Notes: generated by a model from the letters alone, not told the origin. Positions 11,425 through 58,093 are shown, counted from the first letter of the stretch. The stretch is DNA of 64,000 nt from an uncultured Acidobacteriota bacterium (GCA_963713825.1 CAVQNG010000005.1:448001-512000); one strand, 5' to 3'. A program made the numbers and translations.

Positions 11425-11469
11425 GACAGGAGTGCCAGGTCGGTGCGGCGGCAGGGCGGCGATTTGCCC

Positions 11470-14379: not shown

Positions 14380-14400
14380 CGCGTAGCTCCTTGTGCTCCC

Positions 14401-15942: not shown

Positions 15943-16068
15943 CGATACTCCCTCCCGTATGTCGGGCCCCATGTTAAGAGATGGGAGGACCGACCGCAAT
16001 CCTCATTTCGAGCCCTTTGACAGGACCCGCTCGTTGCAGCAAACTGGTCGCTCGGAGGGGCGAAGAGA

Positions 16069-17139: not shown

Positions 17140-17256
17140 GGAGGTTGAGGTGCTCGGCGACTTCGCCGATCGGTCCTTGAGGGCTTGGGGTTGAGGCAGT
17201 CGGTCGTGCCATCCGGCTGTTCTTCTGGGTCCTGGGCAAAAGACCGAAAACTTGTT

Positions 17257-17420
17257 GAGGTCCGTCCGGGTGGTTCGCAGGGGGACGGCGACGGCTACTC
17301 AGACTGTGACGGATGGGCCGCCACCTTGTCTCGTCATCGCGCCTCATCTGTCTTGCCCTTCGATGGACCTTGCGCTGCACTCGACTCGGCACCCCCTATC
17401 GGACCACCCGAACGGGCCTC
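17257..17420 (-). repeat. 164-bp fold-back repeat family A, copy 3
   Basis: Reverse-complement match to 70-233. Confidence 0.88.
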
Positions 17421-17471
17421 CAATCATCAGCGATCAAGTGTTCTCGGGCGAGATCAGGTGTGGCGCGAAAG

Positions 17472-17502
17472 AAAAACGGCCGACCCGAGGGTCGGCCGTT
17501 TT
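17472..17502. terminator. Bidirectional intrinsic terminator
   Basis: AAAACGGCCGACCC/GGGTCGGCCGTTTT inverted repeat between convergent genes. Confidence 0.8.
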
Positions 17503-17522
17503 GGAACGTCGAGGGCCTTGCA

Positions 17523-18791
17523 CTAGAAGCCCCAGGAGTAGCTGATCTCGATGTCCCACTGACTCATGGCCAGGGTGATGTCCTGCAGGCCAGGAACCTC
17601 GAGCATATTGGGTCCGGTGACCTCGACCTCGGGGGCGTACATCAGCGAGAAATTGAGACCGCTGCTGTCGCCGAAAGCCCTGGTGAAGCCGAAGGTGAAG
17701 TGGTCTTCCATGACGCCGGGGGCGAGGATGTTGAACAGCACCTCGCTCTCCGGGATCGGCTGGTCGGTGAACGAATAGCCGAAGCGCCACGCCCAGGCGT
17801 TCTCGGGGTCGTATTGCAGACCGAACTTCCAGACGGACATATCCTGCCAGCCGAAGCCGGCGCCGCCGTCGTCTCCCAGCCGTGCCGTCTGCAGGTTGGG
17901 CAGCAGTGGGTTGCTGATCGACTTGATGTTGCTGTAGTAGATGTCCTGATAGTCGACGAGCAGGCTCATGGCCGGCGTTGCGTGGATGGCGATGCCAGCG
18001 GTCAGGCTAGCCGGGATGTTGAACCCGCCCCGCTCGGCGAACAGGCCCGCATAGTCGGTGAACTCGTCCATGCTCATCTCGGTCTCGTAGGAGATACCGA
18101 ACGAGAACCGGTCGGTGAACCGCCCCAGGTAGCCTACCTTGGCGCCGTAGCCGGTGGAGGTGGACTTGCCGTTGTCTGAGAGCTTGGTGGGATCGGAGGA
18201 GAAAGGCGCGAAACTGCCGACGCCCTGGGCCTCGAAGGTCTGGTAGACAAAGATCGGCATGATGCCGATGGAGTGTTTGTCCGCGAACTCGACAGCCCAG
18301 GGAATGCCTACGAAGAGCTGCTCGAGATTCACGCCAGTGGGCTGGCCGGCATAGAAGGTCGCAGCAGGGTAGTCGGTGTTCATTCCACCATGACCATAGA
18401 GGTTGACGCCCAGGGTCATGTTGTCACCGATTCGCCAGCTGCCGCCGAAGTAGGGGATGTAGAAGTAGTTGGAATCGCTCTCCACCTTTCCGGGTGTCAA
18501 GCCAAAGGTGCCGGGGAAACCAGAGGGGTTGCCCGTTACCGTGTAAGACCGGTCGGGGCTGAAGACCCCGATTCCGGCATCGTAGCGCTTGCCCACGACC
18601 ACCATTCCAGCCGGGTTGGTCGCCGCTGCCATGGTGTCCTGAGGCATGGCCACGCCGGCGCCCGCAAGCGCTTTGGCGATGGTGCCGTAACCATGAGCGA
18701 AGTAGCCGTTGGTGGCCTGAGCGGGCGAGACCATCGCCAGAGCCAGGAGAACGGCCAATGATCCGAAGAGGATCCTGTGAAACTTGGTCAT
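17523..18791 (-). CDS. OmpP1/FadL-family outer-membrane transporter (copy 1)
   Basis: ATNGYFAHGYG..LAGAGVA..NPAGM hatch motif, GGMNTDY, SYSWGF terminus. Confidence 0.88.
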   Translation of the reverse strand: MTKFHRILFGSLAVLLALAMVSPAQATNGYFAHGYGTIAKALAGAGVAMPQDTMAAATNPAGMVVVGKRYDAGIGVFSPDRSYTVTGNPSGFPGTFGLTPGKVESDSNYFYIPYFGGSWRIGDNMTLGVNLYGHGGMNTDYPAATFYAGQPTGVNLEQLFVGIPWAVEFADKHSIGIMPIFVYQTFEAQGVGSFAPFSSDPTKLSDNGKSTSTGYGAKVGYLGRFTDRFSFGISYETEMSMDEFTDYAGLFAERGGFNIPASLTAGIAIHATPAMSLLVDYQDIYYSNIKSISNPLLPNLQTARLGDDGGAGFGWQDMSVWKFGLQYDPENAWAWRFGYSFTDQPIPESEVLFNILAPGVMEDHFTFGFTRAFGDSSGLNFSLMYAPEVEVTGPNMLEVPGLQDITLAMSQWDIEISYSWGF

Positions 18792-19064
18792 TTGAATCTG
18801 CCTCCCTTGTTATCGGTCTTGCTTGGTACAACCAACAACACGATTCTCGGTACTGCTGATACGCAGCTTCCCAAGTTGGCGCGATCTCATGATGTGGGGT
18901 CGACAAACAAGTGGAAAGCTCAGCCGACAAACAGCCGAGCAATCGATCTGGCTTGGGTATGGTGCCACGCAGGTCCTTTTCGGACCACGGTCAACGGGAT
19001 GGCTCTGTCGCCCCTGCAGGGTGGGATTCGAGCCCTGAAATAGGGTGGTTGGATCGAGCGAGCC

Positions 19065-19078
19065 TACTCTTTTGGGTA
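19065..19078. promoter_or_regulatory. Putative CsoR-family operator upstream of fadL copy 1
   Basis: TACTCTTTTGGGTA, near match to TACCC-N4-GGGTA. Confidence 0.4.
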
Positions 19079-19163
19079 GGTAGCGTGATTGGATTGTCAG
19101 TGGAAACAAAGAGGCCCCTCTCCGTAGAAAGGGGCCTGTACTCGATTCGTGGCTAGCGGACGA

Positions 19164-19463
19164 TCAACCGTAACGATTCAGGAGGCTCAGGACCTCCGAG
19201 ACTTCCTCTCGAACTTCGGGTGTGTCGCAGGCGTGGCCGGCCAGCCGGCGGGAGACAGCACAGGAGATCTGGTCGCTGAAGGCCTTGTTGAGCGCCCCGC
19301 GGGCCGCAGCCAGCTGCTGGGCGATCTTCTCGCAGTCTTCGTCGTCAGAGATCATCTTCTGGATGCCGCGAAGCTGACCCTCGACCCGTGCCAGTCGGGC
19401 CAGTAGGCGCTTCTTGTCCTCGATCGGCACGACCGCTTTCTTGATCGGTGCTACAGAAGCCAT
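19164..19463 (-). CDS. CsoR/RcnR-family repressor, probably persulfide-sensing (CstR-like)
   Basis: RLARVEGQLRGIQKM..DCEKIAQQLAAARGAL; extra Cys and no canonical metal-binding His; sulfurtransferase context. Confidence 0.85.
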   Translation of the reverse strand: MASVAPIKKAVVPIEDKKRLLARLARVEGQLRGIQKMISDDEDCEKIAQQLAAARGALNKAFSDQISCAVSRRLAGHACDTPEVREEVSEVLSLLNRYG

Positions 19464-26017: not shown

Positions 26018-26033
26018 AGCATTGAGCGTGCCA
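26018..26033 (-). promoter_or_regulatory. Sigma-54 (-24/-12) promoter of the sqr-tusE-dsrE-fadL-cytc operon
   Basis: Minus strand TGGCACGCTCAATGCT (GG-N10-GC), about 40 nt upstream of the sqr ATG. Confidence 0.8.
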
Positions 26034-26132: not shown

Positions 26133-26252
26133 TTTATGTTGCAACGCAAAGTTCCGTGATGCCCCACAGGAGCGCCGAGAAAAGGGTGGCACCTCGAGAG
26201 AGCGTCGAGGCAGTGAGGCTATGTGGCGGGAAAAAAACGGGTGGCACCCGGG

Positions 26253-27702: not shown

Positions 27703-28215
27703 TCACTCCCACCAGATATCCAGCTCTTCCGGTGGATTGAGCTTTTCGGGCTCGAAGCCCAGACGGCGCAGCTCGGTGATAACGGCTTCTTCCACCTCGG
27801 GTATCGCCGCCATGACCGGCTCGCTGAGCGTAGTCTGTAGCTCGACCTGGGAGGGGATGACTCCGACCAGAAGTACGTCGTCCGGCGCCTCGCCGATGAA
27901 ATCACCAGCCAGCAGCGCGTCTCGCAAGCTGGGATCGTGGGGTGACAGGCGCAAAGCGGGAAGGATCTTGGCGATATCCTGTTGCCGGTAGAGACGCACC
28001 TCGCCCGGCTCTCCCTTGGCTTTCACGGCATCCAGAACGATCACAGCGTCGAACTGGGCCATGTAGTTGACGAACTCCGGCCCTGGCGTGCCGAGATCGA
28101 GAAGCTCGATCTCCGACGGGAAGATGTAGTTGGCCTTAAGGAATTGGAGGACGTACGCACCGAAGGCGTCGTCCCCCATGATGATGCTGCCCAATGAGAT
28201 GATTCCAACTTTCAT
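27703..28215 (-). CDS. hybD: [NiFe]-hydrogenase maturation endopeptidase (HybD/HyaD family)
   Basis: LGSIIMGDDAFG, LDLGT, VLDAV..GEPG, SPH motifs. Confidence 0.88.
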   Translation of the reverse strand: MKVGIISLGSIIMGDDAFGAYVLQFLKANYIFPSEIELLDLGTPGPEFVNYMAQFDAVIVLDAVKAKGEPGEVRLYRQQDIAKILPALRLSPHDPSLRDALLAGDFIGEAPDDVLLVGVIPSQVELQTTLSEPVMAAIPEVEEAVITELRRLGFEPEKLNPPEELDIWWE

Positions 28216-28242
28216 GGGCTGCAAGTATATGCGCGTTCTCGG

Positions 28243-28368
28243 CTATTCCTTGCCTCCAGGCTCGCGGAGATAGCGCACGAAGTAGATCAGCAGCACGAGG
28301 AAGCACATCAGCAGCAGGTACTCGAGGCCTTTGGTCTCGAAGATGTTGACGTAGGTGTAGGTTTCCAT
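28243..28368 (-). CDS. 41-aa single-helix membrane peptide (HmcD-like), absent from the ORF track
   Basis: GGAG RBS then METYTYVNIFETKGLEYLLLMCFLVLLIYFVRYLREPGGKE*; directly follows the NrfD gene. Confidence 0.7.
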   Translation of the reverse strand: METYTYVNIFETKGLEYLLLMCFLVLLIYFVRYLREPGGKE

Positions 28369-28384
28369 GGGTTCAGACTCCCTT

Positions 28385-29638
28385 CTACAGGCTGGCCGCA
28401 ATGGGTGGACGCGCGGTTTTCCTCTGCTCTTGCTCGGGCAACTCGTGAGCCTCGCGGAGTACCGGCATGCGCAGAACGATCCAGCGGAAGACCCAGATCT
28501 CGGCCGAGACCACCATCATCGTGACCACGATCTCCTGCCAGGAGGGGTAGTAGCGGACGGCCGCGTTCCAGTTGTAGGCGATCACCGAGATGTTGAGGCG
28601 ATTGACGACGATACCGAGGAGTGTGAGCACCGCGGCGGCTCGGATGATGCCGATGTGCCGGTGGCGCGCTCCGTAGGCGAACATGATGCAGGGAATCAGG
28701 ACGAGACCGATGATCTCGAGCAGATACCAGGCTCCCCAGCCGCCCCGGACCATCGTCCACTGCTTGTCGTGGAGAAAGATCAGCGCCCGGAAGAAGTAGT
28801 ACACGAACATGGAGATGGCGGCGCCCTTCGCCAGACCGATCACGATGTCGTCAAAGGAACCGTGCTTCTTCGGGTCGATCTGGTCCTTGAAGACCCGATG
28901 GCTGATGGTGCCTTCGAAGATGATCATGGAGAGTCCTGCGAAGATGCTCGAGACGAGGAAGAAGATGGGAATGAACTCGGAGTACCAGAGTGGGTGGATC
29001 TTGGGCTTGGCCATCAGGTAGAGGGCGCCGAGACCCGACTGGTGCAAGCTGGACAGGGTGACACCAAAGATCACCGCGGCCAGCGTCAGGGAGGAGAGGA
29101 TTCTTCGGGCTCGGCGGGCTCCCAGCCACTCGGCTACAACGGGAGAGAATTCGAGCAATTCCGTGAGCATGTAGAGCAGGAAATGCCAGGAAACCAGAAA
29201 GAGGACCGAGTTGAATCCGAAGCTATTGCCGATGATGGGGTTGATGATGTTCCAGGGCCGGCCCAGGTCGAGGGCCAGAGCGCCGGCGTAGAAGACATAC
29301 GCCAAAAGGCCGTTCAGGACCGTGGCACGGACGATGGGGTGGTATTTCTCCATACGCATGATGTAGACGGCGAACGTGATCGTGTAGGCGCCCCCGGCGA
29401 AGGCGACGCCAGTGACGACGTCGAATCCGATCCAGAAACCCCAGGGATACTCCTGTGAGAGATTGGTGACCGCACCCAGGCCCTTGGTGAAACGGACGAC
29501 CAGGATCCCCAGCCCGAGGAGCATGATGGGCACCGAGATCACGTTGAAGGGCGTGAAGATTTTGCCCCGTGGGCGCAGCTGGGAACGGACGAAGTTCCAG
29601 AATCCACCCTGGTCACGGACGACAGTCATCGAAGTCAT
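28385..29638 (-). CDS. NrfD-family membrane subunit (HmcC/HybB-like)
   Basis: YPWGFWIGFDV, DLGRPW, SSLHQSGLG, RLNISVI, YYPSWQE. Confidence 0.9.
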   Translation of the reverse strand: MTSMTVVRDQGGFWNFVRSQLRPRGKIFTPFNVISVPIMLLGLGILVVRFTKGLGAVTNLSQEYPWGFWIGFDVVTGVAFAGGAYTITFAVYIMRMEKYHPIVRATVLNGLLAYVFYAGALALDLGRPWNIINPIIGNSFGFNSVLFLVSWHFLLYMLTELLEFSPVVAEWLGARRARRILSSLTLAAVIFGVTLSSLHQSGLGALYLMAKPKIHPLWYSEFIPIFFLVSSIFAGLSMIIFEGTISHRVFKDQIDPKKHGSFDDIVIGLAKGAAISMFVYYFFRALIFLHDKQWTMVRGGWGAWYLLEIIGLVLIPCIMFAYGARHRHIGIIRAAAVLTLLGIVVNRLNISVIAYNWNAAVRYYPSWQEIVVTMMVVSAEIWVFRWIVLRMPVLREAHELPEQEQRKTARPPIAASL

Positions 29639-29672
29639 GGTCGTGCTCCGTAATTCTGGTCTGTCATGACCG

Positions 29673-30518
29673 TCAGTCCTCCTCGTCCGAACCGGACATC
29701 TGATTGAGTCCATAGAGCAGGGCAGGTACCCCGAACAGCACTAGAGGAACGCCGTAGAGGAAGTCGCGTGTGTACTCTGGATAGGGAGTCGTTCCCAGGT
29801 CGGTCCGGAAGCCCAACTCCTCGAAGGGCACGGCCGACAGATAGAGCCAGCCGGTGCCACCCACTTCGTGCTCGCCGTAGATCTTGTGCACGTAGCGGTC
29901 GGGGTGGTTGTAGATCCGCACCCGGGCAATCTCCATGAGATCCCTCTTCTTGCCGAACATGAGGGCATCGGTGGGGCAGGAATCGACGCAGGCTGGTTTC
30001 TTGCCCTCTTGAAGGCGATCGAAGCAGAGGTTGCATTTCTGGATTTTGGGGTTCCATTCGTTGTACTCGAACTTGGGGATGTCGAAGGGGCAAGAGACCA
30101 TGCAGAATCGACACCCCATGCATTTCGACGAGCGCCAGATGACCGGACCCTCCTGGGTCTTGTACATGGCGTTGGTGAGGCAGGCAGCGGTACATGCGGG
30201 CTGCCAGCAGTGCATGCACTGGGTTTTGACGAAGACCTCGCCTCGGGTCGTGTCGTAGCGATTGACGACGGTCCAGGCAGACTCGCTGGTCTTACGCGGC
30301 GTCTCGAGAGCCTCGTCGTTGACAGTGTCTGGGACGGGGAAGCCGTGCTCGGTCGCACAGGCCTTCTCGCAGGCCCTGCACCCGATGCAACGGGTGGTGT
30401 CGACCAGCACGCCGGAGAACTCCGGCGAGGGTGCCGCGCTCTCGGACCCCCGTGCGTCGGTGCCGGTCAAGGCCATTCCGGCGACTCCTGTGACCTTCAG
30501 GAAATCCCTCCGATTCAT
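29673..30518 (-). CDS. Tat-exported 4Fe-4S dicluster protein (HmcB/HybA-like)
   Basis: MNRRDFLK Tat signal, four FeS Cys clusters, C-terminal TM helix. Confidence 0.92.
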   Translation of the reverse strand: MNRRDFLKVTGVAGMALTGTDARGSESAAPSPEFSGVLVDTTRCIGCRACEKACATEHGFPVPDTVNDEALETPRKTSESAWTVVNRYDTTRGEVFVKTQCMHCWQPACTAACLTNAMYKTQEGPVIWRSSKCMGCRFCMVSCPFDIPKFEYNEWNPKIQKCNLCFDRLQEGKKPACVDSCPTDALMFGKKRDLMEIARVRIYNHPDRYVHKIYGEHEVGGTGWLYLSAVPFEELGFRTDLGTTPYPEYTRDFLYGVPLVLFGVPALLYGLNQMSGSDEED

Positions 30519-31045
30519 CCTGCGACCTCCTTCTCAGGCGACAGCCGGTTGTGCCTTGCGCTTTCCTGCGAAGACGGGTTCGCTGCTCCCTGATGGCAGG
30601 TGCCGCAATTGCGGCTCGCATCGGGACCTTTGGCGACCTCGTGGCACTTCCAGCAGCTTTGATGAATGACGACCTTGGCGCTCATGGTCTCGTCGGCGAC
30701 GGTGTGTGGCGCGCTGTGGTGGCAGGTGGAACAGGCCTGTGGACAGGCCGGGGTCTCACTCTCGTGATGACAGGTCGTGCAGTCGATCCAGAAGTCCTGT
30801 AGGTAGTCCTCATGGGGCATCTGCAGCCTGACGGCATTGGTTTCGTGATGGCAGTCCGCACAGGGGATCTCGAAGTCCTCGCTGTGCATCTGGTGTGCGA
30901 AGGTCACCTCGCCGACCGAGGAAGGCGACACGATGACGTCTGGGGGCGCGGGTGAGAGGCAGCGATCCTCGGCTGGTTGGCCTGCGGCGGTGGTCGCGAC
31001 CAGGCCGAGAGCCAGCACGAAGAGAAAAAGGGTGGCACCTTTCAT
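30515..31045 (-). CDS. Cytochrome c3-like multiheme protein (5 CxxCH)
   Basis: Signal peptide, VTFAHQMH, CADCH, CTTCH, CSTCH, CWKCH, CGTCH. Confidence 0.88.
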   Translation of the reverse strand: MKGATLFLFVLALGLVATTAAGQPAEDRCLSPAPPDVIVSPSSVGEVTFAHQMHSEDFEIPCADCHHETNAVRLQMPHEDYLQDFWIDCTTCHHESETPACPQACSTCHHSAPHTVADETMSAKVVIHQSCWKCHEVAKGPDASRNCGTCHQGAANPSSQESARHNRLSPEKEVAG

Positions 31046-31106
31046 GCTTCGGTCCTCCAGGGTTCAGACTCACTCGAGTCAGAGTAGAAACTTCAGTCCA
31101 ATCGGC

Positions 31107-32294
31107 TCAAGAAACCGGCGCGGCGGTGTTGCTGGAGCCTACGAATGTGTCGCCGAAGACGGACCAGGTGATCTCGACGCCCTTCATCTTGGCTTCTTCA
31201 GGAGTCAGCGCCGTGGCCCGCTCGCCTTCTTCCTCCGCTTGCCTCAGAGTCGTCAATCGACTCCAGAAGTCACGAATCTCGCCCTCGTACCAGGGCAGGG
31301 CGTCGGCGCCGATCCTGAGGTCACCGAGCTCCTGGCTGAGCCTGGCCGGCTCCATGCAGCAGATCCACCCCAGGGCGAACGGCCGCCGGGTAACCAGTTC
31401 CAGGTAGTAGGTGAGGTCGTGGTTGACTCCAGTGACCTTGCCGGTGAGCGGCGAGGGGAAGGTCAGAAGGGTATCGCCCCGCCGTAGGGAGAAGAGTGGC
31501 TCTCCCTTGCGAACCTGGCTGCCTTGCGCCGGAAACTCGATGTCCTTGATGTCTTCGAGCGTCTTCAGGGCGAAGTCATCGAGGCCGATTCGCGCTTCGC
31601 CGGTGATGTCGATGCCGACCCAGGTGTGCTCGGGCGAGACGTAGATTCCACCCGGTACGTTGATGACGTTGGGCGAATGGGACTCTTCGACGGCAGCGGT
31701 CACCAGCTGGACCCGGGGAGCGATCTCCTTCTCGATGCGGTCCCGACGCCGAATCAGGCATTTGTTGGTGAAGGCGCCCAGCTCGTCTGGCGTGAAGGGC
31801 TTCTCCACGTAGTCCATGGCGCCGAATCGCATCGTCGACACCGCGGTCTCGATGGTTCCGTAGCCGGTGATCATGACGACGTCGATGTCGGGCCGGAGGT
31901 GCTTGACCGCCTTGGTCAAGTCCATACCGTCCATGCCGGGCATCTTCAGATCGGTGAAGACGAAGTCGTAGTCGTGCTTACGGACGAGTCCCAGCGCCTC
32001 TTGGGCAGTCTCGACGGTATCGATGGAGAAGCCCTCCAACACAAGGATCTTGCGGAAACTGTCGAGGACGACGGGCTCGTCGTCGACTGCCAGAATGCGG
32101 GCCTTCGGCGAATCCACTTCGACCCGCTTGAGACTCACGGCTTCATCGGTGTAGTCGAGCTTGAGGCCGGTATCGAGGGCCTCGGCCCGCTCCTTCTTGA
32201 GCTTGGCGTCCTCTCTTTTCTTCAGTGCCAGGCGCAGCAGGAGATCGACGACGAAGAAGACAACAATGGTCAACAGGACGATTACGACTACCAT
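31107..32294 (-). CDS. Membrane-anchored receiver domain fused to GcvH-like domain (no lipoyl Lys)
   Basis: N-terminal TM helix, AVDDE..FTDLKMPGMDG..KPF receiver, then EHTWV..RIGLDDF..PSPLTGKVTGVN..GW H-protein fold. Confidence 0.85.
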   Translation of the reverse strand: MVVVIVLLTIVVFFVVDLLLRLALKKREDAKLKKERAEALDTGLKLDYTDEAVSLKRVEVDSPKARILAVDDEPVVLDSFRKILVLEGFSIDTVETAQEALGLVRKHDYDFVFTDLKMPGMDGMDLTKAVKHLRPDIDVVMITGYGTIETAVSTMRFGAMDYVEKPFTPDELGAFTNKCLIRRRDRIEKEIAPRVQLVTAAVEESHSPNVINVPGGIYVSPEHTWVGIDITGEARIGLDDFALKTLEDIKDIEFPAQGSQVRKGEPLFSLRRGDTLLTFPSPLTGKVTGVNHDLTYYLELVTRRPFALGWICCMEPARLSQELGDLRIGADALPWYEGEIRDFWSRLTTLRQAEEEGERATALTPEEAKMKGVEITWSVFGDTFVGSSNTAAPVS

Positions 32295-32322
32295 GGCTTT
32301 ACCTCCCACTCGAAACGGTGGT

Positions 32323-33156
32323 TCACGAAACCGGTTTCCTTTCGCCTTCATGGGTCGGGCGGTGTTCAATCACGGTCAGCTCCCGCTCGAGGTCCGAAGG
32401 GATGATTTGTGCAAGCCAGCCGGTGCCGAACGGATCCCGGTCGAGGATCTGCGGGTCGGCTCCGAGTTGCTCGTTCGTGGTCAGGATCTGTCCGCTCAAT
32501 GGGGCCCAGACACGGTGCACCAGGCCTCCATGGCTGAGAATTCGAATCAGGGTCTTGCCCTGAACCGTGTTCTCGGAGCCGCCTGAGAACTCGATCGACT
32601 CGATCTCCCGGAGCAGTCCAGCGAAGGTCTCGGCGGCACCGAGAGTCGCTGTCCCGTCTTGGTCGAGGCGAACCCAGCTGTGGCGCCCGAGTTGATAGCC
32701 CTCGACTCCGGCGTCGGCGTCGTGGCGGGCGGCCTCTGCTGCCAGGAAGTCAGGCGACAAGGCGCCTGGGGCCGAGCTCACGAGACGAAAACGCAGAGAA
32801 CGACGTACCACACCCAGAAGCTCGCGAGCGTCGAAGGGTTTCGGTATGAAATCGAAGGCGCCCAGGTGAAAGGCCTCGAGGGCGTTCTCCAGGGTCGCGT
32901 AGCCGGTGATCATGACGATCTCAGGAGGGGCGGCGAGGGCTCGGCAGAGGTCGAAGATCTCGAAGCCGGATGCCCCGGGCAGCTTCAGGTCGCAAAGCAC
33001 GATCTTGTAGGTGGCGACGTTCAACCTGGCGGCGGCGCTCTCCATTTCCGGTGCCATGTCGGTTGAGAGTCCGGCTCGACTCAGCACGCGCTCGGCCGCC
33101 ATCTGGACAACCGGCTCGTCTTCGACGATCAGGACGTCAATCTGTGGCTTGGTCAT
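32323..33156 (-). CDS. Receiver domain fused to GcvH-like domain (no lipoyl Lys)
   Basis: IVEDE..LCDLKLPG..PKPF receiver; HSWVRL..APLSGQI..N..DPFGTGWL H-protein fold. Confidence 0.82.
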   Translation of the reverse strand: MTKPQIDVLIVEDEPVVQMAAERVLSRAGLSTDMAPEMESAAARLNVATYKIVLCDLKLPGASGFEIFDLCRALAAPPEIVMITGYATLENALEAFHLGAFDFIPKPFDARELLGVVRRSLRFRLVSSAPGALSPDFLAAEAARHDADAGVEGYQLGRHSWVRLDQDGTATLGAAETFAGLLREIESIEFSGGSENTVQGKTLIRILSHGGLVHRVWAPLSGQILTTNEQLGADPQILDRDPFGTGWLAQIIPSDLERELTVIEHRPTHEGERKPVS

Positions 33157-34675
33157 CGCTCGTCCCTTGGGTGTATCCGCTGGTCTCGTTGACTGGCAGA
33201 AGGATCGTGAAAGTGGTTCCCCGGTTCGGTTTGCTGTCCACGGAGATGGTGCCGCGATGTTCCTCGACGATGCCCCAGACCACCGCCAGGCCGAGACCGG
33301 TGCCACCCGTATCTCGGGTCGTGAAGAAGGGTTCGAAGACTTTTTGTAGATTCTGGCTTGGTATACCGCAGCCGTTGTCCGCGACTTTGATCTCGATGTG
33401 CGGAGTGCCTTCGATTTTCTGCAGGTCGGTCCCGACGAAGATCTCACCGCCCTTTTTGGGTCCGATGGCAAGAGCCGCATTGACGAGGAGGTTGATGAGC
33501 ACCTGGACCAACTGGTTGGCGTCGACCCGGATGTCAGGAAGCTCCTCGAGAAGGCCGCGGGTTACCTGGATATTGGCGACATCGAGCTCGTGATCGACGA
33601 TGGACAGAGCCTGGTTGACGATGGTATTGATGTCGGAGTTGGTCTTGCGGGGTGGCACCTGGCGTGAGAAATCGAGGAGGCCCTTGACGATGTCGCGGCA
33701 CCGTTTGGTCTCTCGGACGATGGTCTCCAGGTCTTCGCGGACTGCGGGATCCTGGTCGGTCTGGCTGAGCAGGAGACTGCTGAAAGTGAGGATGCCGGTC
33801 AGGGGATTGTTGATCTCGTGGGCGATTCCCGCCGCCAGCTGGCCGACCGATGCGAGCTTGTTGGACTGGTAGAGCTGGCTTTCGGTCTCGGCGATCTTCT
33901 GGGTCATCTCGTTGAAGGAATGCTGGAGCTTGCCGAGCTCGTCGTTGCGCTGAACTTCGATCCGGTAATTGAAATCCCCCGCTGCGACGGCGTCGGTAGC
34001 TTTCATCAGTTTGCCGACCGGCTTGCCGACGAGACGATGGACGATCAGCCAGATCAGGAAGCTGATGGAGAGGATGGCGATGGCAATGGAAAGCAGGGCT
34101 TTGGCTCGCTCTTCTGCCATGTGGCGTTCCGTGCTGGCGAGATCCAGGGTGATATCCAGGACGCCGAGGACGGCTTGATCTGGCGGGTGAGCGTGACAGT
34201 CGGCTTCGGTGCAGCTGGGCTCGTTATAGATGGGCTTGATGATGCCGAGCTGGGCGTGGCCTTCCGAGTCGTCGAAGAAGCGTGTCCGGGATGTTCTGTC
34301 GGGTCGCTCGAGGGGGGAGTCCGAGGCGTGACAGACATAGCAGGCTTCGGCGTGCTTATCGACCATGGTGCCGATGGTGCCCTTGTCGGGGGAGTAGATG
34401 ACACGGCCGTCTTTGTTGAGGATGCGGATGCCGAGGATGTTCTCTTGGCGGCCGATCGCATCGATGATCTGGTGCACCTCCTCCGGTTGATTCTGGAGCA
34501 TGGCGAAGCGGGTGCTTCGTTGGATGGTCTCGGCGCACTGGTCCGCGTAGCTCTCCATGAGGGTGACCATGGAATGGCGGTGGGTGACGATGAGGAGATT
34601 GGAGAGGAGGCCGAAGATGACGGCCGCCGTCAAAGCCACTGCCACGATGAGCCGGTGACTGATCCTTGTCCTCAT
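33137..34675 (-). CDS. Sensor histidine kinase with periplasmic c-type heme motifs, HAMP, HisKA and HATPase domains
   Basis: Two TM helices enclosing CYVCH and CTEADCH; AHEINNPL H-box; DNGCGI, PFFTT, GTGLGL. Confidence 0.92.
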   Translation of the reverse strand: MRTRISHRLIVAVALTAAVIFGLLSNLLIVTHRHSMVTLMESYADQCAETIQRSTRFAMLQNQPEEVHQIIDAIGRQENILGIRILNKDGRVIYSPDKGTIGTMVDKHAEACYVCHASDSPLERPDRTSRTRFFDDSEGHAQLGIIKPIYNEPSCTEADCHAHPPDQAVLGVLDITLDLASTERHMAEERAKALLSIAIAILSISFLIWLIVHRLVGKPVGKLMKATDAVAAGDFNYRIEVQRNDELGKLQHSFNEMTQKIAETESQLYQSNKLASVGQLAAGIAHEINNPLTGILTFSSLLLSQTDQDPAVREDLETIVRETKRCRDIVKGLLDFSRQVPPRKTNSDINTIVNQALSIVDHELDVANIQVTRGLLEELPDIRVDANQLVQVLINLLVNAALAIGPKKGGEIFVGTDLQKIEGTPHIEIKVADNGCGIPSQNLQKVFEPFFTTRDTGGTGLGLAVVWGIVEEHRGTISVDSKPNRGTTFTILLPVNETSGYTQGTSDDQATD

Positions 34676-34690: not shown

Positions 34691-35960
34691 GGTGCCACCC
34701 TTTTTTCTGCGACAAAGGGCGGTTCTGCGTGAAGGTGCTTTGGGGACCGAGGCAGTCGGCTCAATGAACGAATTGCTGACTGCATTTCCGAGCCGACGGC
34801 GCTGCCCTCGATCGTCCGCAGTCAGTATGCGGCCGATACGAGGCAAAGAAAACGTCCCTTGGGGTATGAAGCCCTCGTCTGTCCGTATTGCTGCCCGATG
34901 CACCTTAGGGCTTACGATGGGTTGCAGTCTCTACGACTTCCCGATGACAGTTTCTTCTGAGACTGGCAGCTAGGTCGGGCCTCGCGCATGTTGCCGGCAG
35001 GGGAGGTGAGGTGGAAAGGCGCCTTCAGGAAATTCGCCGAAGATGTCTGCAGAGTTCAATCGGTTGGCGGCATTCTGGAAGGCCTCAACGAAGCATGAGT
35101 AGGCCTCTCGAAAGAGAGTGCGGGCCTCCTGAGAGACACAATGAACGAGCGGGGCAGGAGACCACTCGGATTTTCTTGGCTTGGTATGAGGGTCCTGGGT
35201 GAGGATGTTCTTCTTGCCCAAAGGGCGACTGCTGCGGGCTCGATGCCGTGCCAAAGCGTCTGCTTCGATTTCAGAAATCAGCTCACGGATGCGCTTCCGC
35301 ATGAGTGCTGGGCGAAGGGATCGCCAGCATGGGATGGGAACGAACTCAACGTGCTCACTTTCACAGAATTGAGATGAATCTCGATGTGCCGCGCCGGGAG
35401 TGGCGACCCGCTGCCGGGTTCTATCGATCCAAATGCCCTCTAGCCTTGCACCATCCAAAAGAGGTCGGATGGAGCTGACACCTGGCCAATCGAGCGGGCT
35501 CGACACTAGGTTCTCTTTGCAGCTGTTGGCCATGATGTAGCGGAGTCGGGCGATCTGTGCTTCTGGCTCGTCACTGACCACGATGTGCTGATATCGACGA
35601 TGCCAGAAGGGACCACGCCATCGATGCAGCCGTCCTGCCTCTTTGGCTAGATTCCCCTGGAAGTACCCGACAAATTTCGCCAGTTGTCGCGCGCTCTCTA
35701 CCGTGAGCAGAAGGTGGTAGTGGTTCGATAGGACTACGCAGGCGTGGAGTCTGACTCCATAGATGCGCTGTGCCCGACCGAGCACTCCAATGAGCAAGCG
35801 ATTGAGCTCGGCTGAAGGTCTCAGCAGGAATCGACCCTGAATGGTGCGATTCGTGACCTCGACGAGGCTGCCTCCTGAAGGAATGAATCGAAGGCGTCGT
35901 CCCATAACCATCCAAGACGAAATGCCGCCCCGACATCTTTCAAGAAAAAAGGTGGCACCT
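34691..35960. mobile_element. RAYT-type element bracketed by an inverted GGTGCCACC(C)TTTTTT / AAAAAAGGTGGCACC motif
   Basis: Motif at 34691-34706 and its near reverse complement at 35945-35960 flank the HUH transposase; interrupts the hybC-kinase gene run. Confidence 0.5.
34970..35905 (-). CDS. REP-associated tyrosine (HUH/Y1) transposase
   Basis: EVTNRT, HACVVLSNHYHLL (HUH), GPFWHRRY, RYIMANS..LV..P.DWPGVSS. Confidence 0.85.
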   Translation of the reverse strand: MGRRLRFIPSGGSLVEVTNRTIQGRFLLRPSAELNRLLIGVLGRAQRIYGVRLHACVVLSNHYHLLLTVESARQLAKFVGYFQGNLAKEAGRLHRWRGPFWHRRYQHIVVSDEPEAQIARLRYIMANSCKENLVSSPLDWPGVSSIRPLLDGARLEGIWIDRTRQRVATPGAAHRDSSQFCESEHVEFVPIPCWRSLRPALMRKRIRELISEIEADALARHRARSSRPLGKKNILTQDPHTKPRKSEWSPAPLVHCVSQEARTLFREAYSCFVEAFQNAANRLNSADIFGEFPEGAFPPHLPCRQHARGPT

Positions 35961-36064
35961 GAAGAAAGAGCCGAGGCGCCACGGGGGCGACTCGGCTCGG
36001 AAATGGCGTCGGGGCTTAGGCGCCGAACGCGGATTGCGACGCCGGCCCCTCTTCCAGTCAATTC

Positions 36065-37762
36065 TTACAGTGCTTTCACTTTCACCAGTTCCTTGCCCTC
36101 GGCATCATGGGTATGAATCGCACAAGCCAGGCACGGGTCGAACGAGTGAATGGTGCGCACAACCTCGAGAGGTCTCTCGGGATCGGCCACCGGGTTGCCC
36201 ATGAGTGATGCCTCGTAGGGCCCCATCCTTCCCTTGGCGTCTCTCGGCCCGGCGTTCCAGGTCGAGGGCACGACACACTGGTAGTTCTCGATGACTCCGT
36301 CGCGAGCGACAACCCAGTGCGACAGCGTGCCGCGCGGAGCTTCGTGGAAGCCGAACCCTTTCTGCACGCCCTTGAACTCGGGCTTCCGCCAGATCTCCAC
36401 GTCTCCGCTGGCGATGTTGTTGGCCAGCAGACCCCAGTGCTTCAGGGCCAGATCCGACAGCACGACGCACCGAATGCACCGCGCCGCGTGCCGTCCGAGG
36501 GTCGAATGCAAGACCTTCGGGGTCAGCTTGACGCCCGCCATGTTGCCAGCCTGCTCTAGGACGTAGGTGCCGTACTTGGCAAAGAGCTCGTTGCCCGAGG
36601 CCAAGCCCATCAGCACCTGAGCCAGCGGACCCACCTGCATCGGCTCGTCCTGGAACCGAGGCGACTTCACCCAGGAGTAGTCCCCGTCGTCTTCCCATTC
36701 GCTGTACTTGGGAACGGTCTCCTCCTCCCAGGGGTGACGCTGCCAGTCACCGTCGTACCAGGAGTGAGCAATCCCTTCCTCGACGTTGTCGCGGAAGTAC
36801 TCGTCATTGAAGCTCGAGATCGGCTTGTACGAACCGAGATCAGCATTCATGATCGTGCCGCCCGGCAGGTCGAACTCTGTCCCCGCTTCGTCGAGCGGCA
36901 GATCTGGCACAGCCATGTAGTTCGTCACGCCCGCCCCGTATCCCAGCCACTCCGGATACATGGAGCCGATGGCGATGACGTCCGGTAGATAGACGTTCTT
37001 CACAAAGTCCTGAACCTCTGTCAGCAGCACCTTTGCCTGATACAGCTTCTTCATGTTCAACGTGGCTTCGTTGTCCATGTTGATGGCGTTGGCGACGCCT
37101 CCGACAGCCAGGTTCTGAATGTTGGGGGTCTTCGACCCCAGAATGGTCACCACCTGATTGGCCTTGCGCTGATACTCGAGGGCCTGCAGGTAGTGGCTTG
37201 CCGCCAGCAGGTTGACCTCGGGTGGCAGATGCATGGCTGGGTGACCCCAGTAGCCGTTGGCGAAGATCCCCAACTGCCCGCTGTCCACCACACCTTGCAG
37301 CCTCGCCTTGACCGCCGCGAGCTGCTTGGTGCTATTTCCAGGCCACTCCGAAATGCTCTCCGCTAGCTTGCTCGCCGCGGCCGGATCGGCTTTCAGAGCC
37401 GACACGATGTCGACCCAGTCGAGCGCCGACAGGTGGTAGAAGTGCACGATGTGATCGTGCAGCCCGTGGGCCGCCAAGATCACGTTGCGAATGTACTGGG
37501 CGTTGATGGGTACGGTCATACCCACCGCATTCTCCACCGCGCGCACCGAAGTGATGGCGTGCACGGTGGTGCACACCCCGCAAATGCGCTGGGTGAAGAG
37601 CCAGGCGTCCCGCGGGTCGCGGCCCTGGAGAATGACTTCGATCCCTCGCCACATCTGGCCCGAGGACCAGGAATTCTGCACCTTGCCGCCATCGACTTCG
37701 ACGTCGACGCGCAGGTGGCCCTCGATGCGAGTGATCGGGTCGACTGTGATCCGTCTACTCAT
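36065..37762 (-). CDS. hybC: [NiFe]-hydrogenase large subunit, group 1 (Hyb-type)
   Basis: DPITRIEGH, QRICGVCTTVH (L1), SFDPCLACAIH (L2) plus cleavable tail. Confidence 0.95.
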   Translation of the reverse strand: MSRRITVDPITRIEGHLRVDVEVDGGKVQNSWSSGQMWRGIEVILQGRDPRDAWLFTQRICGVCTTVHAITSVRAVENAVGMTVPINAQYIRNVILAAHGLHDHIVHFYHLSALDWVDIVSALKADPAAASKLAESISEWPGNSTKQLAAVKARLQGVVDSGQLGIFANGYWGHPAMHLPPEVNLLAASHYLQALEYQRKANQVVTILGSKTPNIQNLAVGGVANAINMDNEATLNMKKLYQAKVLLTEVQDFVKNVYLPDVIAIGSMYPEWLGYGAGVTNYMAVPDLPLDEAGTEFDLPGGTIMNADLGSYKPISSFNDEYFRDNVEEGIAHSWYDGDWQRHPWEEETVPKYSEWEDDGDYSWVKSPRFQDEPMQVGPLAQVLMGLASGNELFAKYGTYVLEQAGNMAGVKLTPKVLHSTLGRHAARCIRCVVLSDLALKHWGLLANNIASGDVEIWRKPEFKGVQKGFGFHEAPRGTLSHWVVARDGVIENYQCVVPSTWNAGPRDAKGRMGPYEASLMGNPVADPERPLEVVRTIHSFDPCLACAIHTHDAEGKELVKVKAL

Positions 37763-37774
37763 TCCAATGTCCTC

Positions 37775-38971
37775 CTAATGGGCTTCCGCTGTGGTGGATC
37801 GGCCAGCCAGGATCGGAAAGACCGTGACCAGTGCCACGTACAGCACGATTTCGATTGCAACGATTCCGATCGTGACGAACATCTCCGGCACGGTCGGGAA
37901 GTACGAGAAATTCTCGCCCGGCATGAAGGCCACCAGATACGTGTCGAACCGGTACATGGTTCCGGCGAGGACCAGCATCATGGCAGCGCGAAACAGATAG
38001 CCGAGATTCTGTCGTTTCTGGGCGTTCATCAGCATCACCGCAGGAACGGCGAAGCAGATGATCTCGAGCCAGAACATCAGAGAGAAGACGTTGAACTGAA
38101 ACATCAGGCCGAGCCGTCCGCGCAGTACCAGTTCCACCAGGCGCAGAGCCAGGTAGACCCAGATGATGTAGGCGGCTACCTTGCCGATGTTTGCCAACAT
38201 CGAGGTGTGGGACGGGCGCCCGAAGTAGCGACTCGCCAGCGCCGATTCCATCACCACCACCGCATAGCCCATGGCGATGCAGGAGATCAGGAATAGCAAC
38301 GGCACGAGCGGCGTGTTCCACAGGCCGTGCAGCCGTGGCCCCGACAGCAGCATCAGGCTGCCCAGGGACGACTGATGCATGGTCGGCAGCAGCACTCCCA
38401 GCGCGATGATCCAGATCAGCAGTTTGTTGACAATGCCGTAGGCTTTCTTCGAGAAGTTGGCCAGCCCCTCCTTGGGACTGTCCTTCCACTTCTCAAAAAA
38501 CGCCGGCGACAGCTCGATCCATAGAACGATGACGTAGGCCATCACACACAGCGCTACTTCGAGCAGGGCGGAGTTCCAGTTGTACTTGCCCATGTCGGGG
38601 AAGCCACCCAGCGGGATGCGCCAGATGAACCACGGCCGGCCCACATCGATGGCGATGGCCAGCCCCGCCATGGAGTAACCGAGGGCGCTGGTCAAGATCG
38701 CCGGACGAACCAGCGGATGGTACTTGCCCTTGTTGAAGATATAGACCAACAGGGCCATGGCGAAGCCGCCGCAACCCAGGGCCGTACCGGTGACGACGTC
38801 GAAGGCGATCCAGAGACCCCACGGATAACCGTCGGTGAGTCCTGTCGACCTGCCAAGACCGACGGCGAAGCGCCAGAGGATGAGGACAACACCGAGGATG
38901 CCGAGCCACAAGATCCACTTGTTGACTTTGCCGAAGGCCGGGCCACCTAGAGGTTGTGCTTGCTCGCTCAT
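37775..38971 (-). CDS. hybB: Hydrogenase-2 NrfD-type membrane subunit
   Basis: YPWGLWIAFDV, YHPLVRPA, PTMHQSSLG, MYRFDTY. Confidence 0.93.
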   Translation of the reverse strand: MSEQAQPLGGPAFGKVNKWILWLGILGVVLILWRFAVGLGRSTGLTDGYPWGLWIAFDVVTGTALGCGGFAMALLVYIFNKGKYHPLVRPAILTSALGYSMAGLAIAIDVGRPWFIWRIPLGGFPDMGKYNWNSALLEVALCVMAYVIVLWIELSPAFFEKWKDSPKEGLANFSKKAYGIVNKLLIWIIALGVLLPTMHQSSLGSLMLLSGPRLHGLWNTPLVPLLFLISCIAMGYAVVVMESALASRYFGRPSHTSMLANIGKVAAYIIWVYLALRLVELVLRGRLGLMFQFNVFSLMFWLEIICFAVPAVMLMNAQKRQNLGYLFRAAMMLVLAGTMYRFDTYLVAFMPGENFSYFPTVPEMFVTIGIVAIEIVLYVALVTVFPILAGRSTTAEAH

Positions 38972-39861
38972 GCCTCACCAGCCTCTTCTGCATCGCCATC
39001 CTTGCGACGATTGCGCCACATCACGACGCCCAGCATTGCGTAGAGCGCTGCTGGTGCGATGAAGCCCTGGTACACGCCGTGTTGGATGGTCTGCTGCATC
39101 TCGGGCACCGGCTCTTCGTCATCGAACCGGAAACCGAGCTTCTCGAACGGCACATGCGACAGGTAGAGCACCTGCGTGCCGCCCAGATCCTTCTCGCCGT
39201 AGATCTTGGGCTCATAGCGATCGGGGTACTCGGCGAGGCGCCGCTTGGCTTCTGCCAGAAGCTCATCGTAGGTACCGGCGATAACCGCCTCACGTGGGCA
39301 GACCTCGCAACATGCGGGCTCCCACTGTTTGTCCCCTGCTCGCTGCCGGCAGTACTCGCACTTGACGATGTAGGGGTTGAGGCTGGACCACTCGAACTGC
39401 GGAACGTTGAAGGGGCATGCCATCTGGCAATAGCGGCAGCCGATGCAGCGGTCCTTGTCCCAGGTGATCACACCGTACTTCTCTTTGCGGAAGGAGCCGA
39501 TCATGCAAGCCCCGACGCAGGCCGGGTCCACACACTGCATGCACTGGCGCTTGACGTAGGAACGCCGATCACCTTCCGAGTAGAGCTTGATGATGTTCTT
39601 GGTGTATTCGTTGAGATCGGTGGGAGCGTCGTAGTTCTCCATCCCTGGGGTCGTGGTGTCCGCCGGCAAGTCGTTGGCCTCTTTGCAGGCCCTCACGCAG
39701 GCTTTGCACCCGATGCACAGGGTGGTGTCGTAGAGCATGCCGCGAGCATCTTCCGGGACAACCTTGCGCTCGCGGGCAGCCTTGACAGGCGACGCGCTCG
39801 CCACCGCTGCGGCACTGGCGGTGGCCATGCCCTTGAGCAGGGAGCGTCGATCGAATGCCAT
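38968..39861 (-). CDS. hybA: Hydrogenase-2 ferredoxin subunit
   Basis: DRRSLLK Tat signal, CIGCKAC and further FeS motifs, GGTQVLYL, C-terminal TM. Confidence 0.92.
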   Translation of the reverse strand: MAFDRRSLLKGMATASAAAVASASPVKAARERKVVPEDARGMLYDTTLCIGCKACVRACKEANDLPADTTTPGMENYDAPTDLNEYTKNIIKLYSEGDRRSYVKRQCMQCVDPACVGACMIGSFRKEKYGVITWDKDRCIGCRYCQMACPFNVPQFEWSSLNPYIVKCEYCRQRAGDKQWEPACCEVCPREAVIAGTYDELLAEAKRRLAEYPDRYEPKIYGEKDLGGTQVLYLSHVPFEKLGFRFDDEEPVPEMQQTIQHGVYQGFIAPAALYAMLGVVMWRNRRKDGDAEEAGEA

Positions 39862-39863
39862 GG

Positions 39864-40991
39864 CTAGCTCTCCTCTTCTTCGGGCTCGTCACCGAGCTTC
39901 TTCGAGGCGGCGTAGCCGGCACCCAGCAGGCCTCCCGCCACGAGTCCGGCCACACCCGTTGCCACCGCTCCGACCTTGCCTTGTGGGGCGCCGATCGGCG
40001 GGTAGGTGTCGGGGTTGGTCGGACGCTCGATGTCCACCGTGTCGGTAATCGATGTCTGCCAGAGGACCTTCTGCTCCGTGCAGCCGACGCAGGGGTGTCC
40101 CAGCCCGATGGGCCAGGCATCGACGACCTCGCCAAACGCCTGAACCGAGCAGTTGGCGTGGGTCACAGGTCCTTTGCAGCCGAGCTTGTACAGGCAGTAG
40201 CCCTGGCGATGGTTCTCGTCGCCGTAGGCCTCTGCAAACCGCCCGGCGTCGAAGTGCGCCCGCCGCGGGCAGTGCTCGTGGATCGTCCGGCCGTAGGCCC
40301 ACTTGGGCCGAGCCAGCTCATCGAGCGCCGGAAGCGTGCCGAAGGTGGCGTACTGCAGAGCCGTTCCGAGGAAGTTGTAGGGGTTGGCCGGGCAACCGGG
40401 AATGGTCACGACGGTCTTGCCCTCGAGAATCATCGGTGCGCCGGTGGCGCCGGTCGGATTCGGTTCGGCTGACGGGATGCCGCCCCAGGATGCGCAAGAG
40501 CCAATCGCGATAATGGCCCCTGCCATCTCTGCAGCCTCGTTCAGGATGTCGACGGCCGTGCGGCCACCGATCATGCAGTAGATCCCATCGTCCTTCTCCG
40601 GGATTGCACCCTCGACCACCAGAATGAACTTGCCCTTGTGCGCCTCCATGGCGGCCATTCGGACCTCTTCGGCCAGATGACCCGAGGGCACCATGAGGGC
40701 CTCGTGGTAGTCCAGCGAGATCAGATCCAGGATCAGCTCGTCGAGGCCCGGGAAGCGCGTACGCAACAGGGTCTCTGTACAGCCGGTGCACTCCTGGAAC
40801 GACAACCAGATTACCGACGGCTTCTGACCTGCAATGGCGGCCTCCGCCATCTTCACACCGGCTCCTGCCGGCAATCCGACGGCCGCGGCCGCAATGCTGC
40901 AGATCTTCAAGAAGTCTCGGCGGTCCACGCCTCTGCCCAGCATCTCCTCGCTGGACACCCCTTTCACGACTCTTGGCAGCAACATATCCAC
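39864..40991 (-). CDS. hybO: [NiFe]-hydrogenase small subunit
   Basis: RRDFLK Tat signal, QECTGCTE, GSCASWGG, PGCP, HEHCPRR, CLYKLGCKGP, C-terminal TM. Confidence 0.95.
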   Translation of the reverse strand: MDMLLPRVVKGVSSEEMLGRGVDRRDFLKICSIAAAAVGLPAGAGVKMAEAAIAGQKPSVIWLSFQECTGCTETLLRTRFPGLDELILDLISLDYHEALMVPSGHLAEEVRMAAMEAHKGKFILVVEGAIPEKDDGIYCMIGGRTAVDILNEAAEMAGAIIAIGSCASWGGIPSAEPNPTGATGAPMILEGKTVVTIPGCPANPYNFLGTALQYATFGTLPALDELARPKWAYGRTIHEHCPRRAHFDAGRFAEAYGDENHRQGYCLYKLGCKGPVTHANCSVQAFGEVVDAWPIGLGHPCVGCTEQKVLWQTSITDTVDIERPTNPDTYPPIGAPQGKVGAVATGVAGLVAGGLLGAGYAASKKLGDEPEEEES

Positions 40992-58081: not shown

Positions 58082-58093
58082 AGGAGGAGAGAG

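Follow-up and report, generated by a model that had tools for sequence, protein, structure and literature searches.

What would two response regulators control when their sole output is the fold of the glycine-cleavage H protein (GcvH), stripped of its lipoyl lysine, and when they stand beside a sensor kinase and a membrane-bound redox module? The question is raised by a 64,000-nt stretch of DNA (the window) from an uncultured Acidobacteriota bacterium, in which seven genes, all on the minus strand from 34675 to 28243, encode a sensor histidine kinase, a soluble receiver-GcvH protein (RR1), a membrane-anchored receiver-GcvH protein (RR2), a periplasmic cytochrome c, an iron-sulfur (FeS) protein, an NrfD-family membrane subunit and a small membrane peptide (Table 1). 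We find that RR2 and the redox genes form a core that recurs across phyla, and that a family of relatives fuses the GcvH fold directly to the peptide. The reading we favour, to which we give about an even chance, is that the cassette encodes a cytochrome c:quinone module, Nhc/Hmc-like in kind, that phosphorylation controls directly: the kinase haems would report, RR1 and RR2 would be phosphorylated, and their H-folds would dock and so tune the complex.

Pfam recognises both a receiver and a GcvH domain in RR1 (Response_reg, E = 1.8e-22; GCV_H, E = 2.5e-14) and in RR2 (E = 1.6e-29 and 2.3e-15), with both GCV_H matches above cut-off; the two proteins are paralogues that share 29% identity over these domains, and no DNA-binding domain is found in either by Pfam or NCBIfam. 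An AlphaFold2 model of RR2, built with 104 sequences (mean predicted local distance difference test score, pLDDT, 86.2), comprises an N-terminal helix (residues 2-42), the receiver, a GcvH-type barrel and two C-terminal helices. The best Foldseek matches of this model in the PDB are H proteins, with template-modelling scores of 0.88-0.92 normalised to the target, headed by the E. coli H protein 3a8j_E (0.92; root-mean-square deviation 1.4 Å). The phospho-acceptor site is intact in both regulators: D71, D115, T143 and K165 of RR2 are invariant in 104 sequences, and D13, D56, T84 and K106 of RR1 are at least 95% conserved in 120. The initial annotation had described the pair in just these terms, as regulators with an intact phospho-acceptor aspartate and a GcvH fold, one of them anchored in the membrane and neither with a DNA-binding output, and this description holds throughout.

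Its claim that the lipoyl lysine is replaced is also borne out. Alignment with the M. tuberculosis H protein 3ift places Asp274 of RR2, the D of RRGDT, at the lipoyl position, and alignment with the E. coli H protein 3a7a places the second G of SHGG there in RR1; in the family alignments, lysine occupies this column in none of 104 RR2 homologues and in 3 of 120 RR1 homologues. A basic residue stands three positions before the column in RR2, and since it is Arg in 49 sequences and Lys in 37, there is no conserved lysine there either. A functional H protein was rejected because the lipoyl lysine is absent; neither gcvT nor gcvP is found among the 50 open reading frames (ORFs) of the window scanned with Pfam. 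Elsewhere in RR2, D17 and R21 of the transmembrane helix are invariant among the 104 homologues, T9 is invariant in the 50 sequences from genome loci and reaches at least 90% conservation in the set of 104, and C312, in a GWIC motif of the final GcvH strand, is present in 104 of 104. The SLKRV segment directly before the receiver of RR2 is strictly conserved as well.

The invariant cysteine bears on an alternative that we consider quite improbable, namely that the GcvH fold remains a carrier or chemical relay, in which modification at another residue, or C312 itself, would shuttle reducing equivalents or sulfur between the cytoplasm and the membrane module, with the receiver merely modulating the traffic. 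Lipoate-binding H-like proteins do act in sulfur oxidation, according to the excerpt of PMC6067878 drawn on here, and sulfur genes are abundant in the window (SQR, DsrC-like, DsrE-like and rhodanese). However, RR1 has no cysteine equivalent to C312, the other loci do not conserve these sulfur genes as neighbours, and NrfD subunits, as they are described in the excerpted part of PMC8076601, lack a redox cofactor by which electrons could reach the cytoplasmic side.

Response regulators are known chiefly as transcription factors, second-messenger enzymes and adaptors of motors or proteases. Searches of Creative Commons-licensed PubMed Central papers and bioRxiv preprints, with subscription journals outside their scope, return no description of a response-regulator output with an H-protein fold or of this cassette. 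The parts are drawn from known families; what the literature searched does not describe is the output domain, the anchored regulator and their fixed link with a module of Nhc/Hmc-like type. The proteins themselves are common: RR2 has more than 4000 protein matches, the best 120 of which share 55-90% identity with it and are named just 'response regulator' or 'CheY-like', and identities of 50-90% across phyla make its conservation unusually high. RR1 has 416 homologues at E ≤ 1e-3, and among the 120 listed all carry GCV_H and 119 carry Response_reg. In a tblastn search of a plasmid collection with RR2 as the query, matches are confined to receiver domains in 2 records; in the ESM Atlas, the GcvH part of RR2 scores below 0.9 throughout against GCV_H clusters of 178-262 residues, which serve as leads only.

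Gene order links these regulators to the redox module. The RR2 alignment was scanned against a collection of one genome per species, in which at least 597 stretches matched and at least 574 were confirmed by tblastn; the best 79 loci (numbered with the prefix L) were surveyed, with downstream genes counted in the 63 loci that extend at least 4.5 kb past RR2, and the kinase and RR1 counted in the 48 loci whose full context to either side is available. Carriers are spread over Acidobacteriota (Thermoanaerobaculia, Vicinamibacteria and others), KSB1/Zhuqueibacterota, Gemmatimonadota, Binatia, Calditrichota, Bacteroidota (Cytophagia, Rhodothermales, Ignavibacteria, Melioribacteraceae), Beta- and Gammaproteobacteria, Geobacteraceae and Spirochaetia. 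Linkage to cytochrome and NrfD genes in other genomes, which the initial annotation had named beforehand as one of three points on which its proposal should be judged, is found in 49 of the 63 loci, where the cytochrome, FeS and NrfD genes follow RR2 directly on the same strand, and the peptide gene is present too in 48. Because this gene order recurs across phyla, the arrangement lies far beyond chance.

The remaining loci depart from this order in a few ways. One locus has no cytochrome (L009) and one a broken FeS gene (L067), and in 6 of the 63 (L018, L025, L039, L043, L071 and L079) a variant FeS/NrfD pair directly follows RR2. The variant was read in L071 alone (11186-13555), where the FeS protein lacks a twin-arginine translocation (Tat) signal and keeps its hydrophobic C-terminal tail, and where the NrfD protein, of about 520 residues, has an extra helix and a c-type cytochrome domain with CXXCH motifs fused at its C-terminus. 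None of these genes lies downstream of RR2 in a further 6 of 63; among these, L051 carries the module divergently upstream, and L024, L075 and L077 carry the variant pair upstream. The kinase is present in 46 of the 48 full-context loci, upstream in 25 and downstream in 21, and RR1 in 32. Since the placement of the kinase and RR1 varies and RR2 stays beside the redox genes, the invariant core is RR2, cytochrome, FeS protein, NrfD and peptide, with the kinase and RR1 as a movable pair. The co-location of the kinase in nearly every full-context locus supports phosphotransfer from it to the receivers, a step that we infer for both regulators. A second RR2-like gene follows the kinase and RR1 genes in L008, L046, L055, L060 and L072, so that the anchored regulator is duplicated in some lineages.

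A gene fusion provides a more direct connection between the GcvH fold and the membrane subunits. Locus L016 carries a standard cassette and then a second, paralogous module that lacks receivers (14867-19403) and encodes an FeS protein and an NrfD protein together with three GcvH-fold proteins: one of 218 residues with an N-terminal membrane helix, one of 266 residues with a Cys-rich N-terminus, and one of 230 residues in which an N-terminal segment of ~37 residues, clearly homologous to the 41-residue peptide, precedes a GcvH-fold domain. A similar Cys-rich protein adjoins the variant FeS/NrfD genes of L024. The peptide::GcvH family numbers 956 matches at E ≤ 1e-3, for which the annotation is often 'glycine cleavage system protein H', and the N-terminal peptide motif is kept in 102 of the best 120 members; Pfam PF28260 is listed for this family. 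A search with a profile of the peptide, against 1.84 billion proteins, gives 178 representative proteins at E ≤ 1e-3, and of the best 150 of these matches, 111 are at most 100 residues long and 22 are of 225-250 residues with the match at residues 1-37. As evidence of the Rosetta-stone type, the fusion connects the GcvH fold with the peptide/NrfD core in the membrane and also puts the fold on the cytoplasmic side. The same family offers the carrier hypothesis a further point in its favour, as 103 of the best 120 members have a lysine one residue off the canonical lipoyl position.

The redox module itself is related to known cytochrome c:quinone oxidoreductases. The FeS protein is matched best by HmcB among NCBIfam models (338 bits against a cut-off of 420), ahead of HybA (223 bits), and the NrfD protein by HmcC (415 bits against 550), ahead of HybB (262 bits); with both scores below the equivalog cut-offs, the module is, as known here from sequence, Nhc/Hmc-like but neither an Nhc nor an Hmc equivalog. 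The cytochrome matches the NCBIfam models for c7, HmcA and nine-haem cytochrome c weakly, and has five CXXCH motifs in 58 of 61 homologues and nine in the other three. An RRxFL-type Tat motif and a hydrophobic C-terminal tail are recognised by a simple pattern test in 58 of 58 FeS homologues, and mean column identity over 50 sequences is 69% for NrfD, in a sample from many phyla, and 74% for the peptide, which matches no NCBIfam or Pfam model. Each of the four redox-module components named in the initial annotation (the five-haem cytochrome, the Tat-exported FeS protein, NrfD and the 41-residue peptide) is thus recovered. Identity with NrfBCD was rejected, the FeS protein scoring 102 bits with NrfC against a cut-off of 378 and the cytochrome showing no match to the NrfB-like model.

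The likeness to the Desulfovibrio Nhc and Hmc complexes (NhcABCD and HmcABCDEF) extends to the subunit set and its order (cytochrome, FeS protein, NrfD, small membrane peptide), to a Tat-exported, tail-anchored FeS protein, and to a periplasmic cytochrome of the c3 class; in the position of HmcD/NhcD the cassette has its 41-residue peptide. NhcABCD is described in the excerpted text of PMC8076601 as a cytochrome c3:quinone oxidoreductase, and the same excerpt gives it no cytoplasmic redox subunit, a trait that the cassette shares, and gives NrfD-like subunits a quinone site and ion-conducting pathways but no redox cofactor of their own. The cassette differs in its cytochrome, which has five haems where NhcA has 9 and HmcA 16, in its dedicated kinase and receiver-GcvH proteins, and in its occurrence far outside the sulfate reducers. 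A response-regulator gene, Rrf1, together with Rrf2, also adjoins the hmc operon, and both genes are reported to affect hmc expression, as stated in a passage of 10.1101/2023.11.02.564894 that cites Keon et al. 1997; the parallel with the cassette, a response-regulator gene beside an Hmc-type operon, is one of description only. The GcvH domains of the cassette share their fold with GcvH itself and with the lipoate-binding protein LbpA, and differ from both in the replaced lysine, the fusion to a receiver and, in RR2, the added membrane helix and C-terminal helices.

A regulator dedicated to a quinone-linked module is also found in Geobacter, where CbcBA, an inner-membrane module running from quinone to periplasmic cytochromes, stands with BccR (excerpt of 10.1101/2021.04.15.440034). 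BccR is a sigma-54 transcriptional activator, whereas the cassette regulators have no DNA-binding domain; the two systems are compared here by description, and two of the 79 loci come from one Geobacteraceae genome. As in the Cbc clusters, neighbours of the cassette are often multihaem cytochromes and cytochrome b. The commonest extra neighbour family is a BLAST cluster represented at 24 of the 79 loci, and each of the three members scanned is a large multihaem cytochrome c; examples of multihaem neighbours lie at L047 16260-18281, L012 2355-4319 and L054 6948-9125, one is fused to a cytochrome b561 domain, and betaproteobacterial loci also carry a separate cytochrome b561 gene. These neighbours fit a role in periplasmic electron-transfer networks.

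The input to the system is predicted to be periplasmic. The kinase runs from a transmembrane helix through a periplasmic Cache/PAS-like domain to a second transmembrane helix, HAMP, HisKA (E = 7.1e-18) and HATPase_c (E = 1.7e-26), and in its translation the motifs CYVCH and CTEADCH sit between the two hydrophobic helices. All 64 homologous kinases of related loci have a CXXCH and a CX4CH motif separated by 43-44 residues. A profile of these 64 sensor regions matches PDB 3b42, the haem-c sensor of GSU0935, at E = 6.8e-5, with CX4CH aligned on the CXXCH of 3b42, and the AlphaFold2 model of the kinase (mean pLDDT 80.7) has as its Foldseek matches the Cache/PAS-like sensor domains of WalK, GSU0935, CitA and KinD, 3b42 and 3b47 among them. 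The Pfam model Mcp40H-20_sensor is matched below threshold (19 bits against 27), and the Tll0287-like model is not matched at E ≤ 0.01. The sensor thus appears to be a distant and atypical relative of the GSU0582/GSU0935/Tll0287 family, sharing its Cache/PAS-like fold with a covalent-haem motif, but with CX4CH in place of the aligned CXXCH and with a second, upstream CXXCH that is also invariant. Members of that family are described in the excerpted part of a 2026 preprint (PMC12889525) as haem-c Cache domains that bind nitric oxide (NO) and serve as input to kinases and chemoreceptors. The kinase had been called heme-sensing; its periplasmic CYVCH and CX4CH motifs stand, but with this domain it is better seen as a haem-containing sensor, probably with two haems attached, than as a sensor of haem.

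This sensor gives rise to a second alternative, which we regard as rather unlikely, in which the redox module is itself the sensory input: the cytochrome would equilibrate with the quinone pool and set the haem state of the kinase, the regulators would signal elsewhere, and the whole cassette would be a quinone-pool sensor. A Pfam scan and reading of the locus find no catalytic subunit encoded in the cassette, both kinase haem motifs are strictly conserved and as periplasmic as the cytochrome, and the cytochrome is a small protein with a conserved set of five haems, all of which would suit a sensor. Against this, a four-subunit membrane complex is a costly device for sensing alone, the frequent multihaem cytochrome and cytochrome b neighbours fit a working electron-transfer route, and the GcvH output is left unexplained.

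Under phosphorylation control of the complex, the parts would work as follows. The five-haem cytochrome, the FeS protein, the cofactor-less, quinone-interacting NrfD subunit and the peptide would form a core through which electrons pass between the quinone pool and periplasmic cytochromes. The putative c-type haem of the kinase would respond to redox conditions in the periplasm or to a ligand of haem, for instance NO, and the kinase would phosphorylate the two receiver proteins, whose only output is an H-fold that cannot be lipoylated. Through that fold the proteins would dock at the cytoplasmic face of the NrfD/peptide core, with RR2 held at the complex by its own conserved membrane helix, and phosphorylation would alter docking and tune the complex post-translationally, for example through a cytoplasm-side ion pathway or quinone turnover. 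A bolder version, which we offer tentatively and with some doubt, is that the cassette represents a widespread and undescribed class of respiratory complex switched directly by a two-component system: the anchored regulator would be a subunit of the NrfD module, the lysine-less H-fold a phosphorylation-controlled cytoplasmic plug or clutch, and the dihaem kinase a sensor of periplasmic redox or NO that changes the flow of electrons or ions within seconds and without transcription, with the receiver-less peptide::GcvH relatives as the unregulated ancestral form.

Several observations weigh against control of the complex by its neighbours. RR1 is absent from 16 of the 48 full-context loci and is therefore not essential to the core, and no FeS or NrfD genes are found in the stretches of L021 and L068 examined. 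The survey covers the best 79 RR2 matches of at least 574 confirmed relatives, with weaker relatives outside it, and the genomic context of the peptide::GcvH family is that of one locus, L016. The module could be a sensor instead of a bulk respiratory enzyme. Lastly, a sigma-54 activator encoded nearby could be the real downstream target.

This activator, a PAS/sigma-54 protein without a receiver whose gene follows hybD in the window and in L001-L004, is a point of departure for a third alternative, which we judge unlikely, though less so than the carrier or quinone-sensor proposals. In it, the receiver-GcvH proteins would act away from the complex, the H-fold binding a transcription factor, an anti-sigma-type partner or another enzyme, so that expression and not activity is controlled through an unlinked or neighbouring DNA-binding protein. 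Single-domain, non-DNA-binding regulators that work through partners are common, and further pairs of a kinase and a sigma-54 regulator lie near many of the loci. The activator, however, is outside the conserved core, and the genes around it suggest another target: a terminator-like hairpin (26238-26250, minus strand) directly follows its gene, and a sigma-54-like -24/-12 site with one mismatch (26019-26033, minus strand) lies ahead of the SQR, DsrC-like, DsrE-like and FadL-like genes that come next, such that the activator may control this sulfide operon rather than the cassette. The pattern has 68 matches over the whole window against 59.6 expected by chance, a count that is uninformative, and the same scan finds no sigma-54-like site upstream of the kinase gene. 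Two further features argue for action at the complex: RR2 is membrane-anchored and adjoins the redox genes, and receiver-less GcvH-fold proteins hold the same positions in L016, where one is fused to the peptide.

If the regulators do act on the complex, they would constitute a direct phosphorylation switch on a quinone-linked and possibly ion-translocating module. RR2 belongs to a large family, as both its protein matches and its confirmed genomic relatives attest, and its carriers include soil, sediment and groundwater lineages, among them Acidobacteriota, KSB1, Gemmatimonadota, Burkholderiales and Ignavibacteria. The proposal, if true, would supply a function for many 'glycine cleavage system protein H' annotations that stand beside FeS and NrfD genes, and it presents a testable case of a cofactor-carrying fold turned into a regulatory subunit.

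In the window, the cassette is flanked by the hydrogenase large-subunit gene on one side and by the gene for the HycI/HybD-type protease on the other. The initial annotation had placed the run between hybC and hybD, and the flanks are right, except that a transposase gene also lies between hybC and the kinase gene. The seven-gene, co-oriented run is present in full by translation and Pfam. Of the several overlaps it had mentioned, two are certain, one of 20 nt between the kinase and RR1 genes and one of 4 nt between the cytochrome and FeS genes; the other gaps in the run are at 16-61 nt, and further overlaps depend on start codons without support from homologues. No minus-strand terminator-like hairpin is found in the intergenic gaps of the run; the sole match within it lies inside the NrfD gene, and the next is the one past the sigma-54 activator gene.

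Table 1. Genes of the cassette and of the adjoining hydrogenase locus, in window coordinates.
Feature	Position	Strand	Length (aa)	Domains or basis
Hydrogenase small subunit	39864-40991	-		Translation
HybA-like	38968-39861	-		Translation
HybB-like	37775-38971	-		Translation
[NiFe] hydrogenase large subunit, hybC-like	36065-37762	-		Pfam NiFeSe_Hases, E 1.3e-218
IS200-like Y1 transposase gene (hybC-kinase interval)	34970-36061	-		Pfam Y1_Tnp, E 2.6e-6
Sensor histidine kinase	33137-34675	-	512	HAMP, HisKA, HATPase_c (Pfam)
RR1, soluble receiver and lysine-less GcvH-fold	32323-33156	-	277	Response_reg, GCV_H (Pfam)
RR2, transmembrane helix, receiver, lysine-less GcvH-fold and two C-terminal helices	31107-32294	-	395	
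Periplasmic five-haem cytochrome c, c3/c7 class	30515-31045	-	176	Cytochrom_CIII, Cytochrome_C7 (Pfam)
Tat-exported, C-tail-anchored 4x[4Fe-4S]-type protein, HmcB/HybA-like	29673-30518	-		Fer4_11, TAT_signal (Pfam)
NrfD-family integral membrane subunit, HmcC/NhcC-like	28385-29638 (ORF open up to 29713)	-		Pfam NrfD
Single-pass membrane peptide	28243-28368	-	41	ME.Y.YVNIFETKG and transmembrane helix
Hydrogenase maturation protease HybD/HycI	27703-28224	-		Pfam HycI, E 4.5e-25

Nesting in a hydrogenase locus, which had stood in the heading of the initial annotation, does not generalise. Of the 79 loci, 4 have hydrogenase genes within 10 kb; these (L001, L004, L005 and L013) are all close relatives within the Acidobacteriota, with a more distant type of hydrogenase in L013 and a separation of about 19.5 kb between hybC and hybD in L004; the nesting is therefore a feature of the lineage and not a property of the system. 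On the same count, a hydrogenase accessory module was rejected. In this organism, the five-haem cytochrome may nonetheless take electrons from the periplasmic hydrogenase. The transposase gene is present in L001 and absent from L005, and therefore arrived once the cassette already adjoined hybC.

Other redox genes are found at a distance from the cassette. The hyp genes lie upstream, a rhodanese is among the sulfur genes of the window, and a polysulfide-reductase-like set is encoded further along. At 10576-15999 on the minus strand, a molybdopterin oxidoreductase (11473-14379) stands beside a 532-residue ORF that joins Fer4_11 and NrfD and looks like a PsrB-PsrC-type fusion, with a NarJ-like chaperone gene adjoining. 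On the plus strand, about 22 kb from the cassette (57146-59839), the gene for a 311-residue multihaem cytochrome (Paired_CXXCH, c3/c7, NrfB-like) precedes that for a 582-residue protein without a Pfam match.

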